Shown: in pieces, positions 37,101-64,000 of the stretch
How positions within the stretch are numbered: position 1 is the first letter of the stretch
Layout: every line of letters begins with the position of its first letter
Assembly: GCA_964016885.1 (NCBI GenBank)
Contig: CAXHJY010000830.1
Location: forward strand, 196,844 to 260,843
DNA: 64,000 nucleotides
Direction of reading: 5' to 3'
Source of the DNA: Eledone cirrhosa
Taxonomy: Eukaryota
Made by a program: the position numbers and the translations under genes
Notes under the pieces: model-generated
Seen by the model: only the letters and a program-made list of their open reading frames with translations
Told to the model about the DNA's origin: nothing
The model's database searches: none

Positions 37101-37877
37101 AATAATGTAAAAAGAAAGAGTTGGGGGATACTTGAATAATTTATTGCAAGACTTTAGAAACTTCTGTATGCTATTTTTTTCTCCTCACTTTTTCTCTCAC
37201 GCTCCTCACCACTCATATAAATATTACAAAATTATATCAGTTTACTATAAAACTATACAATCTTGAAATTAGCTTAAACATCAAATCATATTGAAGTGGT
37301 TTCAATAGATATATATAAAAATATGTACTCTCAACATAGACAATTTATTTAATTTCTAAAAAAATGTCTTTCTTTACTCATAGCATTAGTATCAGCATAT
37401 GAAAAAAGGGAACAGGAAAATAGTGCAGACAAAGAGATGTAGGAATAAAAACAGAGAGGAAAAAGTGATAAACAAAGATAGAACAGAAAGAAAAAAAGAC
37501 ATACACATAGAAGATGAGAATAGTATGTAAAAGTAGGCAATAAATAAATGAAAAGAGAGAAAAATAAGGAGAGAACAGAAAAGCCAATCATCAATTTGGC
37601 AATAAAACCTTAACTATTCCTTATGTATATAACAATTGAAATTGTTTCAAGAATCCTCCTGAGTACCACAGCTATAATAAGTAAATTATGAAGACAATTT
37701 AATTTAATTTCAGTAAAGACTGCTACATTTAACATAATCTGCACTGAGCATACTAGATTATACTGTCAACATTATATTTATAATCTATTTGTCTTTTCTT
37801 AGTTTACACTAATATAACATTTGTCTACAAATATATATGTATATATATATATATGTATATATATATACATATATATA

Positions 37878-38086
37878 TAGGAACAAGTATGACCCCGACG
37901 GCAGAGCTCAAGCCGTTTCGACGGCTAATTCTGGACATAGTAACAGTCCAGAATTAGCCGTCGACACGGTTTCAGCTCTGCCGTCGAGGGTCATTCTTGT
38001 TCCTATTACCCATTCTACTACCCTAAGTATTGAGTACTTTGGTGCATTATGGTCCATCTGGTTCGTCACCACATTTCCTTTGTTAC
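37878..38086. repeat. Foldback element: 128-nt hairpin plus about 80-bp extension, embedded in (TA)n
   Basis: Arms 37878-37936 and 37946-38005 with a 9-nt loop; the extension recurs at 60625-60723. Confidence 0.9.
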
Positions 38087-38128
38087 ATATATATATATAT
38101 ATATATATATATATATATATATATATAC

Positions 38129-38476
38129 ATCATTCATCATCATCATTTCATTTTACGTCTGCTTTTTCCCTGCTTGCAAGGGTGGGACAGGAACTGATTT
38201 TGGCTTGATTTCTACAGCCGGATGCCCTTCCTAACACCAACCTCATTTACAGTGAGTGCTGGGTGCTTTTTTTGCCGTGGCACCTCCACGACCACTTTGC
38301 AGTGGAATGATATGGACCCCAGTCCCTATCATCTCATTTCTACAGCTGAGTAAATTGGAGCAATGTGAAATAAAGTGTCTTGCTCAAGGAAACAACACAT
38401 CACCCGGTCTGAGAATTGAACTCACAACCTTTCGATTGCAAGGCCAATGCTCTAACCACTAAGCCATGTGCCTCCA
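38129..38476 (-). mobile_element. tRNA-derived CORE-like SINE (family S2) with an RTE-derived 3' tail
   Basis: Head TGGAGGCACATGGCTTAGTGGTTAGAGC...GTGAGTTCAATTCTC (A and B boxes); CORE-like tccttgagcaagacact; the 3' part matches the RTE family A 3' UTR; (GAT)n tail. Confidence 0.85.
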
Positions 38477-38485
38477 TTATATATA

Positions 38486-60290: not shown

Positions 60291-60723
60291 CGAGATGGAC
60301 AACGAATTACCTCCAGCCTCGGGGTCGCCGACCGCACGGAACCCCTAGACCCATGGACACCATACTTCACACTGAAGGACCATAAATCCGATTTTCACCG
60401 TAAACCCTCTATCAGGCTTATTAACCCAACGAAGTCCGGCATAGGGAGAAACAGCAAAAAAATCCTAGACCGCGTGATACCAAAAGTCAAGCAACACGCC
60501 CGACTTAGCCTATGGATCAACACCCAGGAAGTAATCTCATGGTTCAGCAATATGGAGGATAAACGAGACACCAAATTCATACAGTTCGACATAGAGAGCT
60601 ACTATGCTTCAATCACCTTACCGCTGGGGTCTTACTGGTTCCTATTACCCACTCTACTACCCTAAGTATTGAGTACTTTGGTGCATTATGGTCCACCTGG
60701 TTCCTTACCACATTTCCTTCGTT
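60291..60723 (+). mobile_element. Penelope-like RT fragment fused to the terminal sequence shared with 37990-38086
   Basis: YFTLKDHKSDFHRKPSIRLINPTKSGIG...WINTQEVISWF...[14 protein letters not shown], then gttcctattaccca.tctactaccctaagtattgagtactttggtgcattatggtcca. Confidence 0.8.
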
Positions 60724-60924
60724 ATATACATATATATACATATACATATATATATATATACATATATATATACATATATATATACATATATATATACATA
60801 TATATATATACATATATATATACATATATATATATACATATATATATACATATATATATACATATATATATACATATATATACATATATATATATATATA
60901 CATATATATATATATATACATATA
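60724..60924. repeat. TA-rich microsatellite
   Basis: Direct reading of the sequence. Confidence 0.95.
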
Positions 60925-62475
60925 TTTACAGGTTTATTCAAAATATTTGGAGCATCAGCTTTTAGGGTAGCTTAATTTTTCATGAGGAATGTTTAAATAA
61001 AAATAAAATAAAAATAAAAAATAAAAAAGAATTAAAAGAAGGAATCAAAGATTTATCGGCTAGTTTCCCATATAAATATAAATCAAACTAAATATACTAC
61101 ATTTTAAATTTAAATTTATATTTAAACGTTGAGTTTAATCTATGTTTGCAACAACTGAATAAATTTGTCCGTAGATTAAGGGAATTTTTAGATTTTAGTA
61201 TAAAGAATATCTCCTCTACGCAGAGGTCACATGTCTCAGAGGATGAATTAAAAGGAATCCCTCTTGAGACTATATTCCAAGCCGTCGAATATCTAACGTT
61301 ATCTAGCTTAAGTTGCCAGAGTACGCCTGATAGTGCCGTTGAAGATTTTTTGCTTGGATCTGTGAAAGAATTCTTGTGGTTATTATAGCGAAGTTTAAAT
61401 TCCGTCGATGTGGAACCGACGTAGTTAAAAGAATTAGAGTCAGTATTAACATTACAATTGTATACTATATTTTTAACTAAGCAGTTGTTATTTAACGGAC
61501 ATTTAGATCTATCTCTACAGTTACATTTGTTAACTTGTATATTATTTATGCTATTATCACTAGGTTTTAAGTTCCTATTATTTATTCTATTAATATTTTG
61601 TGCTAAATTTTTGGTGGATGAGTAGGTTAATTTAATTGTATGCCTATTGAAAATTGAGTGATACCTATGTGTTCTAGGGAAGCGATTATCAAGAGCTTTG
61701 AAAAATAGTTTAGCGATGTGGGTTTTAATGTTTAGTGAGAAGGGGGGGGGGGGGGCAAACCAAATTATGTTCCTAGTTCTATTTCTTTTTTGGCCTTTGG
61801 AATTATTGTAATGCTTTCTATTATAGTTGTTAAGGTTGTTGCCGTAATTAAAAAAGTTGTTACTTTGTTTAGTTTGTCTATCATTATCTATGTACACAAT
61901 CTTATCAGCATATCCTGCTCTAGCTAATGCTTCATTATAGTATTGGGCCTTTTCGTCGAAAATCTTTCTATTCGACGAGATCCTAGAGATACGTTTTTGA
62001 ACAGAGTTTACTATAGTGTTTTTGACAGATCTGGGGTGGTTAGAGTTAAAGTTGACATAGTTTAAGTTTTCATTCAACTTGTGAAAAGGATAGTGGAGAC
62101 ATGTGTTGAGATTTAATGTTATATCTAGGAAATTGACTATTCTATGGTTGTTCTCAATTTCTATTTTAAGATTAAAGTAATTAAAAAATTTTGTAATTTG
62201 TTTACATTTTCTATTTAGTTCAGGGTTATTATTATTAATAAGTAAAAGCATGTCATCTCTATATAAACCTCCGGTAGTACCAGGTATTTTCCTATGTAGC
62301 GAATTGATTAAAAATAAGCCCACAAGGTCAGTTACCTGAGCTGAGTCGGATGATCCCAATGTAGTTTCCATTTATTTAATATTGTAAATATACTCCAAAT
62401 ATTTGTCGAGTGCTTTTATATCAGTTATAAATATTTACTAGTTGTAACCCAACAATTTTAAATATAACTTTCCAC
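60925..62475 (-). mobile_element. 5'-truncated Penelope-like element (second family)
   Basis: Open ORF 61097-62371 flanked by short AT-rich ends and TA arrays. Confidence 0.9.
61097..62371 (-). CDS. Penelope-like RT C-terminal part plus GIY-YIG endonuclease
   Basis: GSSDSAQVTDLVGL, GGLYRDD, VNFLDITL, CNCRDRSKCPLNNNC, IVYNCNV...YVGSTSTEFKLRYNNH, CDLCVEE, CKHR. Confidence 0.9.
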   Translation of the reverse strand: METTLGSSDSAQVTDLVGLFLINSLHRKIPGTTGGLYRDDMLLLINNNNPELNRKCKQITKFFNYFNLKIEIENNHRIVNFLDITLNLNTCLHYPFHKLNENLNYVNFNSNHPRSVKNTIVNSVQKRISRISSNRKIFDEKAQYYNEALARAGYADKIVYIDNDRQTKQSNNFFNYGNNLNNYNRKHYNNSKGQKRNRTRNIIWFAPPPPFSLNIKTHIAKLFFKALDNRFPRTHRYHSIFNRHTIKLTYSSTKNLAQNINRINNRNLKPSDNSINNIQVNKCNCRDRSKCPLNNNCLVKNIVYNCNVNTDSNSFNYVGSTSTEFKLRYNNHKNSFTDPSKKSSTALSGVLWQLKLDNVRYSTAWNIVSRGIPFNSSSETCDLCVEEIFFILKSKNSLNLRTNLFSCCKHRLNSTFKYKFKFKM

Positions 62476-63408
62476 ATATATATATATATATATATATATA
62501 TATATATATACATATATATATATATATACATATATACATATATATATATATATACATATATATATATATATACATATATATATATATATACATATATATA
62601 TATATATACATATATATATATATATACATATATATATATATATACATATATATATATATATATACATACATATATATATATATATACATATATATATATA
62701 TATACATATATATATATATATACATATATATATATATATACATATATATATATATATACATATATATATATATATATACATATATATATATATATATATA
62801 TATATATATATATATATACATATATATATATATATACATATATACATATATATATATATATACATATATATATATATATACATATATATATATATATATA
62901 CATATATATATATATATACATATATATATATATATACATATATATATATATATATACATATATATATATATATATACATATATATATATATATACATATA
63001 TATATATATATACATATATATATATACATATATATATATATATACATATATATATATATATACAAATATATATATATATACATATATATATATATATACA
63101 TATATATATATATATACATATATATATATATATATACATATATATATATATACATATATATATATATATATACATATATATATACATATACATATATATA
63201 TATATATACATATATATATATATATACATATATATATGCATATATATATATATATATATATATATACATACATATATATATATATATATATATATATGCA
63301 TATATATATATATATATATATATACATATATATGCATATATATATATATATATACATATATATATGTACATATATATATATATATATATATATATATATA
63401 TATATATA
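62476..63408. repeat. TA-rich microsatellite with a dominant 14-bp period
   Basis: catatatatatata units recur regularly, for example in 62536-62760. Confidence 0.95.
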
Positions 63409-64000
63409 TCATCATCAACGTTTAACGTCCGTGTTCCACGCTTGCATGGGTTTGGACGGGGGTAGTCCCACTTGAGGCAAGAGTGATTGTCTTGCTCGCA
63501 TAGGACTGTCTGGCAGGTTTTCTACAGTTGGATGCCCTTCCTAAGACCAACCACATTTACAGTGTGGGTCTGGGAGGTTTTTACCGTGTTGCCTACACGG
63601 CCACATTACAGCGTGGACTGTGTGTTTTTTTTGTCGTGACACCTACACGATCTCATTTGTTTCGGCCTGGATGGTGTGGCACCAACACAACTTTACATAG
63701 AACGGGGTGGCGTGGATGGGGTGGGGGGACGGAGGGGGGGGGGGGGGGGGGGGGGGGGGTATTTTGTTAGAGATGCCTACTGGCTGTAGTAGGTTTTACT
63801 ATGTATTTAGGTAAGGGGGGTCTTCTCTGTTACTGAGTACCGCCAAAGGTCTCGGTCCAGTGACATCGTCTTGGAGAGGTGTAAGTGTGTGAGGTCAGAG
63901 TTTATCAGCTCGTCCCAGGTTTTTCTAGGTCTGCCTATTCCGTGGCTACCGTCTATCTTTATTGCCCTGCACTTTGTTATACAGCTATCGACTTTCATGC
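63409..64000 (-). mobile_element. RTE family B 3' end (continues beyond the window)
   Basis: Near-identical reverse complement of about 42917-43497; ORF MKVDSCITKCRAIKIDGSHGIGRPRKTW. Confidence 0.93.

Follow-up and report, generated by a model that had tools for sequence, protein, structure and literature searches.

The window, by which we mean the whole stretch of 64,000 nucleotides analyzed here (it contains no Ns), ends in an island where long TA-rich arrays alternate with inserted elements. Between positions 37831 and 63409, a compound (TA/TACA)n microsatellite is present today as 15 segments, 11 of them long, totaling ~11.0 kb. TA-type arrays amounted to 10,932 bp by a sliding mask and 11,026 bp by hand boundaries, or 42% of positions 37830-64000, whereas the same sliding mask found 92 bp of such array in positions 1-37829. 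These figures bear out a sequence-only reading of this DNA, which had proposed about 11 kb of TA-type arrays in a 26-kb island, with long arrays of 0.2-2.5 kb each. That reading had also called them giant (TA)n microsatellites: the kilobase scale stood but the purity did not, because the arrays are heavily interrupted, with median perfect TA runs of 8.5-17 nt and just three runs of at least 44 nt across the 11 kb.

The arrays separate 16 inserts in 26 kb, and 13 of these were assignable to retroelements: four RTE pieces, two CR1-like pieces, five Penelope-like elements (PLEs), one tRNA-derived SINE, and one RTE-like non-autonomous piece. We take the clade name RTE from motifs and layout, use CR1-like as a provisional label, and presume the non-autonomous piece to be RTE-like from element layouts. 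Eight assigned pieces lie on the minus strand and five on the plus strand (no strong bias); the proposal of more than a dozen retroelements from three clades on both strands is therefore upheld for 13 pieces, with 3/16 inserts unassigned. TA arrays flank 11 inserts on both sides; two others have only TA4 on one side, two abut each other on one side, and one is cut by the window end, so that the statement that nearly every element has TA repeat on both sides is borne out for 11/16.

The RTE pieces, a clade in which Exo_endo_phos_2 and RVT_1 domains were detected, represent families A and B, and all four end in intact (GAT)n tails. The longest (family B, 40406-43509, plus strand) is 5'-truncated within the APE endonuclease and retains RT and a PHD finger in a broken frame; a second family B 3' end (63410-64000, minus strand) is 95% identical to 42917-43497 and runs off the window. 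Family A is represented by 3' fragments at 43924-44277 (minus strand, 94% identical to 1622-1960) and 59622-60262 (plus strand, 94% identical to 1623-2268). The SINE (38128-38476, minus strand) combines a tRNA-derived region (Rfam tRNA at 38409-38466, E 0.0019) with an RTE-type 3' region and (GAT)n tail, and is 90% identical to the RTE-A 3' UTR over 118 bp. The two CR1/L2-group-like 3' fragments resemble the C-terminal ends of two APE-RT proteins that have just 25% identity to the RTE homolog: 49023-49390 (plus strand) matches P0246 (tblastn E 1e-6) and ends in a short tandem tail, and 54697-55180 (minus strand) is 68% identical to the end of P0241, with an A-run tail of ~15 nt. The short non-autonomous piece (58673-59280, plus strand) ends in a C2H2 finger remnant (Pfam zf-C2H2, E 2.6e-5), and no tail is visible. 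Altogether, seven of the eight LINE/SINE pieces combine an intact, recognizable 3' tail with 5' truncation, which is the signature of normal target-primed insertion.

The unassigned inserts comprise a non-coding hairpin element at 37880-38086 (a self-matching ~60-bp inverted repeat with a one-sided 80-bp extension, present at very high copy by read depth), its partial second copy at 60627-60722 (92% identical to 37988-38083), and an AT-rich insert at 57684-58259 that retains CpGs. Pfam searches of 116 of 128 short frames, leaving out 12 that overlapped repeats or had already been scanned, yielded one C2H2 finger only and no host gene. An Rfam search of the whole window had 316 matches, and the 150 listed were all noise from miRNA models on the arrays.

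All five PLE-like pieces contact TA on at least one side, three lie between full arrays, and we found none outside the island within the 64-kb window. The two long copies, both 5'-truncated and on the minus strand, carry stop-free RT/GIY-YIG frames: 45028-48314 (frame 46558-48054) and 60926-62475 (frame 61100-62371). The former, the longest PLE, has an inverted 5' copy typical of PLEs, a 124-bp terminal repeat that is 100% identical and includes a variant hammerhead-like core. A decayed 3' end at 38485-39248 (minus strand) retains a Hydra-like GIY-YIG C-terminal remnant (tblastn E 4e-7), and a Hydra-like internal RT fragment at 60290-60626 (plus strand), truncated at both ends, is 43-46% identical to full-length homologs. 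The non-coding piece at 50494-52330 (minus strand) had no protein or Rfam match and is of probable PLE origin, judging by a hammerhead-like core and a Hydra-like 3' end. TA at 50840-50866 may divide it into two separate pieces.

Motifs and homologs place the coding PLEs in the Hydra clade. Both long frames, 38% identical to 710-aa homologs, have an I[VY]Y..YVG motif of GIY-YIG type near the C-terminus, although a Pfam search of the PLE frames for GIY-YIG returned no match. Both also have the CxCX5C linker and the CxxC and CxH motifs around conserved E and N residues; these three motifs occur in 111, 119 and 115 of 120 homologs, respectively. Of 36 full-length homologs, 30 have the N-terminal RWK motif and 34 the DKT motif; both fall in the region that the window copies have lost by 5' truncation. 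A motif scan placed hammerhead core-like motifs at 38551 and 50580, and variant cores were recognized by eye in the two long copies; no Rfam hammerhead was found in three PLE stretches. Identity with Naiad was ruled out, since the endonuclease is C-terminal. Protein-based searches for loci returned no PLE, the single match being an unrelated remnant at 41% identity.

The first 37 kb differ from the island in TA content, but their supposed decay was overstated. A young RTE family A copy at 1622-3379 (minus strand) keeps a stop-free 485-aa frame, shares 94% identity with two of the island copies and has no TA flank; a CR1-like LINE at 11968-14779 keeps a 466-aa frame. Conversely, the longest RTE in the island has at least four in-frame stops and two frameshifts. 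The CpG observed/expected ratio is 0.48-0.50 in these two outside LINEs and 0.34-1.17 in the island inserts, compared with a background of 0.21-0.26. CpG retention thus tracks young elements.

The arrays share a history that can be followed across the inserts. Interruptions are C, not G, on the plus strand in 11/11 long arrays (sign test p 0.001), and the flanks of one insert resemble each other more than permuted pairs do (10 pairs, p 0.007-0.046, 9/9 settings). A compound string of 177 bp recurs without mismatch to the left and right of the PLE at 45028-48314, where 100 token shuffles gave no more than 75 bp, and non-adjacent arrays have rare compound strings of 101 bp and 103 bp in common, both exact, where shuffle maxima were 71 and 93. 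Given this common polarity and the alike flanks, the inserts likely split one pre-existing compound microsatellite. The variant spectrum differs between neighboring arrays, and local turnover is visible within them. Birth of an array from each element's own tail was ruled out, as array polarity is independent of element orientation. Sister copies are 5-9% divergent and oppositely oriented; their inversion and different truncation rule out tandem duplication of a unit. The inserts are likely independent events that arrived one by one. Strand polarity and variant strings in common thereby make microsatellite history readable across insertions.

Nesting statistics support the proposal that TA is a common, repeatedly used target. 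At most two of 16 inserts lie within earlier element DNA, versus 5.6 expected under random landing; the shortage has P 0.01-0.05 at constant target and loses its significance with an ancestral target of double the length. For LINE/SINE pieces alone the shortage is weak: 0/8 lie in non-TA element DNA, of which 15 kb had accumulated (expected 2.8, P 0.03, or P 0.17 if the SINE counts as nested). All P values given here are optimistic because counts are small and the region was picked for its density. RTE-type tails are 2.8-fold denser per kb in TA than in flank for all ages (p 0.08) and 17-fold denser for young copies (p 0.003). Outside the island, two of ~8 RTE-type tails, both very short remnants on the minus strand inside a short TA/CA tract at 24900-25030, lie in TA runs, whose share of the sequence is 0.66%; this has P 0.001 if they count as two events and P 0.045 if they count as a single locus. 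Candidate target-site duplications inside the repeat averaged 11.1 nt against 13.2 nt under the null, no different from chance, and so say nothing directly about endonuclease cutting.

These data are best explained by ordinary insertion: we put at roughly two in three the probability that the 16 inserts entered one pre-existing microsatellite singly, through standard target-primed reverse transcription, with every family taking its own route to TA. For PLEs, (TA)n insertion has been reported for almost all Hydra families, with Hydra-1_Obim of Octopus bimaculoides listed as (TA)n, and the preference has been attributed to the endonuclease linker (Craig et al. 2021, PMC8557442); here too the GIY-YIG endonuclease and its linker would presumably direct the elements to (TA)n. 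The tails of the RTE, SINE and CR1-like copies ((GAT)n, A-rich, or ending in TTAT) likely pair with 1-3 nt of nicked target. At 5/5 (GAT)n tails of the island, AT or ATG is common to tail and target, and short words of this sort are denser in the array (AT 3.9-fold, ATA/TAT 10.8-fold), a 4- to 11-fold excess that would make LINE/SINE copies favor TA. Pairing over 2-3 nt could explain the RTE bias, which at 3- to 17-fold is within the range expected from it. Tail-dependent site choice by RTEs is already published (Nishiyama and Ohshima 2018, PMC6007223). The RTE, SINE and CR1-like copies appear to have the TA bias known for PLEs, and our literature search found no octopus report of it. A 22-letter RTE 3'-end pattern had no match in the genome or viral contigs searched; two metagenome records gave the same 54-nt match with a non-TA flank, possibly from another family. 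Insertions would probably persist through the selective neutrality of the tract, after which slippage and local duplication would remodel the separated array segments. Against this explanation, intact tails also fit priming at host-made nicks, and the PLE piece at 60290-60626 lacks both ends.

An improbable alternative is a passive sink, in which PLEs target TA while LINEs and the SINE, from extremely abundant families, land randomly and are retained owing to the neutrality of the region. Reads of four runs mapped to the 1.1-kb stretch 59621-60722 indeed show the RTE-A/SINE 3' region to be extremely abundant (237,915 reads of the 12.5 million in one run), neither the young RTE-A copy nor any of about five older RTE-type tails outside the island is flanked by TA, the all-age tail ratio is only 2.8, and Octopus vulgaris has many TE hotspots (288 windows; PMC13282606). 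The sink accounts poorly for the lack of LINE/SINE pieces in accumulated element DNA and for the outside tails in TA runs. About equally doubtful is the broader idea that TA arrays are self-renewing landing pads throughout this genome, with host-made nicks priming APE-type LINEs and PLEs, isolated segments regrowing, and islands reaching tens of kb as part of genome expansion. If true genome-wide, such a trap would tie the growth of microsatellites to the TE hotspots of cephalopods, with consequences for the assembly of these regions.

Slightly less probable still is the sequence-only model in which long (TA)n extrudes cruciforms or breaks, captures any retroelement without its own endonuclease, and then re-expands. 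A target common to three unrelated clades suggested it, as do a few junctions within pure runs of 35-41 nt and the PLE fragment without either end; in yeast, pure (AT)23-34 is a fragile sequence on which Mus81 acts (PMC12972899), and occupied MuTAnT sites in Medicago average 15 TA units per flank versus 9 at empty sites (PMC4486113). Against nuclease-free landing stand the Hydra-clade identity of PLEs with a known (TA)n preference, the 3' tails kept in 7/8 LINE/SINE pieces, and the young same-family RTE outside the island without TA flanks. Endonuclease-independent L1 insertions likewise occupy AT-rich sites without visible target-site duplication, but all 21 loci were defined by 3' truncation and absence of a tail (Sen et al. 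2007, PMC1920257). The cruciform-forming Flex1 site is also an AT/TA dinucleotide repeat, but it is described as needing ~23 or more uninterrupted units, with no effect for (AT)14 (PMC12972899); perfect runs here are mostly far shorter. Predicted DNA hairpin energy is only 34-64% of that of pure TA in 9/11 arrays, because C interruptions on one strand cannot pair, and, with three short arrays set aside, pure runs at 22 array edges are not longer than interior ones (median 8.5 versus 8, p 0.21), which argues against break-prone DNA as the landing site. Nor does the unrelatedness of the nucleases call for landing without a nuclease: for every family a separate way to TA is either documented or plausible. 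As for an assembly artefact that concatenated unlinked TA-flanked loci through repeats, a join inside an array would keep polarity too and neighboring arrays are unlike in variant spectrum, but this is similarly unlikely given the N-free window, the rare strings common to non-adjacent arrays, the matching array ends across individual inserts, and the unique flank at 31000-37800, of whose words 0.95-0.99 occur in three runs of one sample (real DNA, although this may be the source sample).

The locus is therefore best read as a large but ordinary cluster in which insertions with a preference for TA have converged, and a novel type of transposon trap is not called for; it is a worked example of convergent (TA)n use, a pattern itself already known. 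Its PLEs resemble Hydra-clade elements, including Hydra-1_Obim, in their C-terminal GIY-YIG, CxCX5C linker, CxxC and CxH motifs, inverted 5' copy and (TA)n insertion; they differ from those described in PMC8557442 in that a single tract holds four to five different families, all window copies are 5'-truncated, and the hammerhead cores are variants missed by Rfam. The RTE pieces and SINE share with those in PMC6007223 the APE and RT domains, a short tandem 3' tail that coincides in part with the start of the target, and a SINE with a common 3' end, and differ in their (GAT)n tail, frequent (TA)n target, and PHD finger after RT. Finally, MuTAnT, TAFT and Micron (PMC4486113) are likewise unrelated families that converge on a (TA)n 'safe haven', their occupied sites being richer in TA than empty ones. 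They are plant DNA transposons in short pure tracts (mean ~12 units), whereas the elements here are retroelements in a kilobase-scale, interrupted array.

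The island at 37830..64000 is a large but ordinary nest of a known pattern. Two methods, a sliding mask and Tandem Repeats Finder, put the TA-type repeat between 37831 and 63409 at 10.9-11.0 kb, or 42% of the region, bearing out the ~11 kb given by the sequence-only reading; the window contains no Ns. What had been described as giant TA microsatellites are compound, with a C roughly every 10 nt and short perfect TA runs (median 8.5-17 nt). Between the arrays lie 16 inserts summing to 15.1 kb: four RTE LINE pieces from two families, two CR1-like 3' fragments, five Penelope-like element (PLE) or PLE-like pieces, one tRNA-SINE that ends in an RTE tail, a short non-autonomous piece of RTE-like character, and three unassigned pieces. 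The earlier statement that nearly every element has TA on both sides holds for 11 of the 16. The host is probably an octopod: a CR1-like fragment has its sole named match in Argonauta hians (67% identity), and the SINE is akin to octopus SINEs. The AT-rich insert at 57684-58259, with TA on both sides, has a CpG o/e of 1.17; searches for an open frame, a Pfam match and a self match within the window found none.

The contrast drawn earlier with the first 37 kb, said to have only short microsatellites and mostly decayed elements, survives for TA (92 bp in 37.8 kb by the same sliding mask) but is overstated for the elements, given a CR1-like LINE at 11968-14779 and an RTE-A copy at 1622-3379, the latter with a stop-free 485-aa frame, 94% identity to two island copies and no TA flank. 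Open frames do persist in the island in two stop-free PLE frames, both lacking the first ~310 of 710 residues, but its longest RTE is disrupted by at least four stops and two frameshifts; CpG retention follows young elements generally. A PHD finger directly follows RT in the RTE families (1925-3379, 42134-42433), as in most of at least 120 homologs. Inverted copies with 93% identity (1-84 and 3546-3629) bracket the outside RTE-A and are possibly the ends of a DNA transposon. By eye, 20200-21090 resembles a decayed Tc1/mariner element; Pfam gave no match on its short frames. A separate short interspersed family has at least five copies outside the island (5999-6221, 24381-24772, 25071-25191, 30136-30283, 34067-34161), and within the window none is TA-flanked or in the island.

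Both long PLE frames (46558-48054 and 61100-62371) encode a predicted RT and then a C-terminal GIY-YIG domain with CxCX5C, CxxC..E and CxH. Of 36 full-length homologs, 34 have DKT and 30 have RWK. By this feature set, the predicted proteins are of the Hydra clade, almost all of whose families are reported to insert into (TA)n, with the linker proposed as the cause (Craig et al. 2021, PMC8557442); the supplement gives this preference for Hydra-1_Obim and for Naiads of three Octopus species. Five of the 16 inserts are therefore expected from known biology, assignment being weaker for 38485-39248 and 50494-52330 than for the other three. The two long frames share only ~35-40% identity, yet their 5' truncations fall at almost one point in the RT, at residues 312-316 of the homologs. 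In the longest PLE (45028-48314), an inverted terminal copy runs 166 nt past the main copy's 3' end (48149-48314) and then meets TA. Rfam gave no confirmation of hammerheads in three PLE stretches; by eye, the other long PLE has a degenerate hammerhead-like motif at its 3' end (60926-60960), and the element stops a few bases past what looks like the cleavage triplet.

The sequence-only reading proposed that cruciforms or breakage in (TA)n may capture retroelements without their own endonuclease. This is disfavoured. Seven of the eight LINE/SINE pieces are truncated at the 5' end and still have a recognisable tail at the 3' end, which is a target-primed signature, unlike endonuclease-independent L1 insertions, whose defining marks are 3' truncation and no tail (PMC1920257). 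An AT-repeat effect reported in yeast is present at 23 units and absent at 14 (PMC12972899), but only three array runs attain 44 nt. Predicted DNA hairpin energies fall below pure TA in all 11 arrays (34-64% in nine, 80-86% in two), because C interruptions on one strand have no pairing partner. At 22 array edges, pure runs do not exceed those of the interiors in length (p 0.21), a comparison that excludes three short arrays, including one that is a single pure run of 41 nt. Some junctions do lie within pure runs of 35-41 nt, host-made nicks could also have primed insertions with intact tails, and inside the repeat target-site duplications are unreadable, so the proposal keeps a small probability. 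A self-renewing trap primed by such nicks is unlikely.

All five island (GAT)n tails share an AT or ATG overlap with the target, in line with the tail-dependent site choice reported for RTE elements (PMC6007223). None of the eight LINE/SINE pieces lies inside non-TA element DNA, against 2.8 expected (P 0.03; 0.17 if a TA4-abutting SINE is counted as nested, 0.13 with an ancestral array twice as long). Outside the island, two of about eight RTE-type tails fall in TA runs, which make up 0.66% of sequence. Both are at one spot near 24950, and P is 0.001 if they count as two events but 0.045 if they count as a single event. Per kb of target, RTE-type tails are in 2.8-fold excess when copies of every age are taken (p 0.08), and in 17-fold excess when only young ones are (p 0.003); because the region was chosen for density and counts are small, these bias figures are indicative only. 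Arrays exceed flanks 3.9-fold in AT, 10.8-fold in ATA/TAT and 26-fold in 4-mer TA words, so a pairing requirement of 2-3 nt would yield the observed range. At 24900-25030, two RTE-type tail remnants ~15-20 nt within a short TA/CA tract form a miniature nest.

The arrays probably descend from one array, split by many insertions at a single locus. The two array ends that face each other over an insert show greater similarity than pairs made by permutation (p 0.007-0.046; 10 pairs including the best, nine settings). A 177-bp exact string flanks the longest PLE on both sides, where 100 shuffles gave no more than 75 bp, and strings of 101 and 103 bp are common to non-adjacent arrays. Such rare shared strings argue against an assembly mis-join inside an array, which we consider improbable. 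ATACAT exceeds ATGTAT on the + strand in all 11 long arrays (p 0.001), if weakly in two (21:11 and 12:9), and this constant polarity, with inserts in mixed orientation (eight minus, five plus), rules out arrays generated by elements as tails. Sister copies (91-95% identity) are inverted and truncated at different points, and thus represent separate insertion events. Variant spectra differ from one array segment to the next, and the flanks are least alike around the decayed RTE-B and most alike around the PLE that looks intact, which suggests local array turnover after insertion, with net growth not implied.

Many insertions per region are to be expected from the extreme abundance of the RTE-A/SINE 3' region and of a non-coding hairpin element with a ~60-bp inverted repeat (37880-38086, 60627-60722). 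Together they drew 237,915 of 12.5 million run X5 reads on 1.1 kb, and their summed contig depth in run X2 is ~1e6, versus ~1e4 for a PLE fragment. Contig depth of the hairpin element is ~thousand-fold lower in one organism's reads than in another's, probably reflecting a recent lineage-specific expansion.

Our search, which did not extend to subscription papers, found no octopus paper that describes a preference of LINEs or SINEs for TA arrays. Transposable element hotspots are reported to be common in Octopus vulgaris (PMC13282606), and plant DNA transposons are described as having converged on (TA)n, which serves them as a safe haven and is longer where a site is occupied (PMC4486113).
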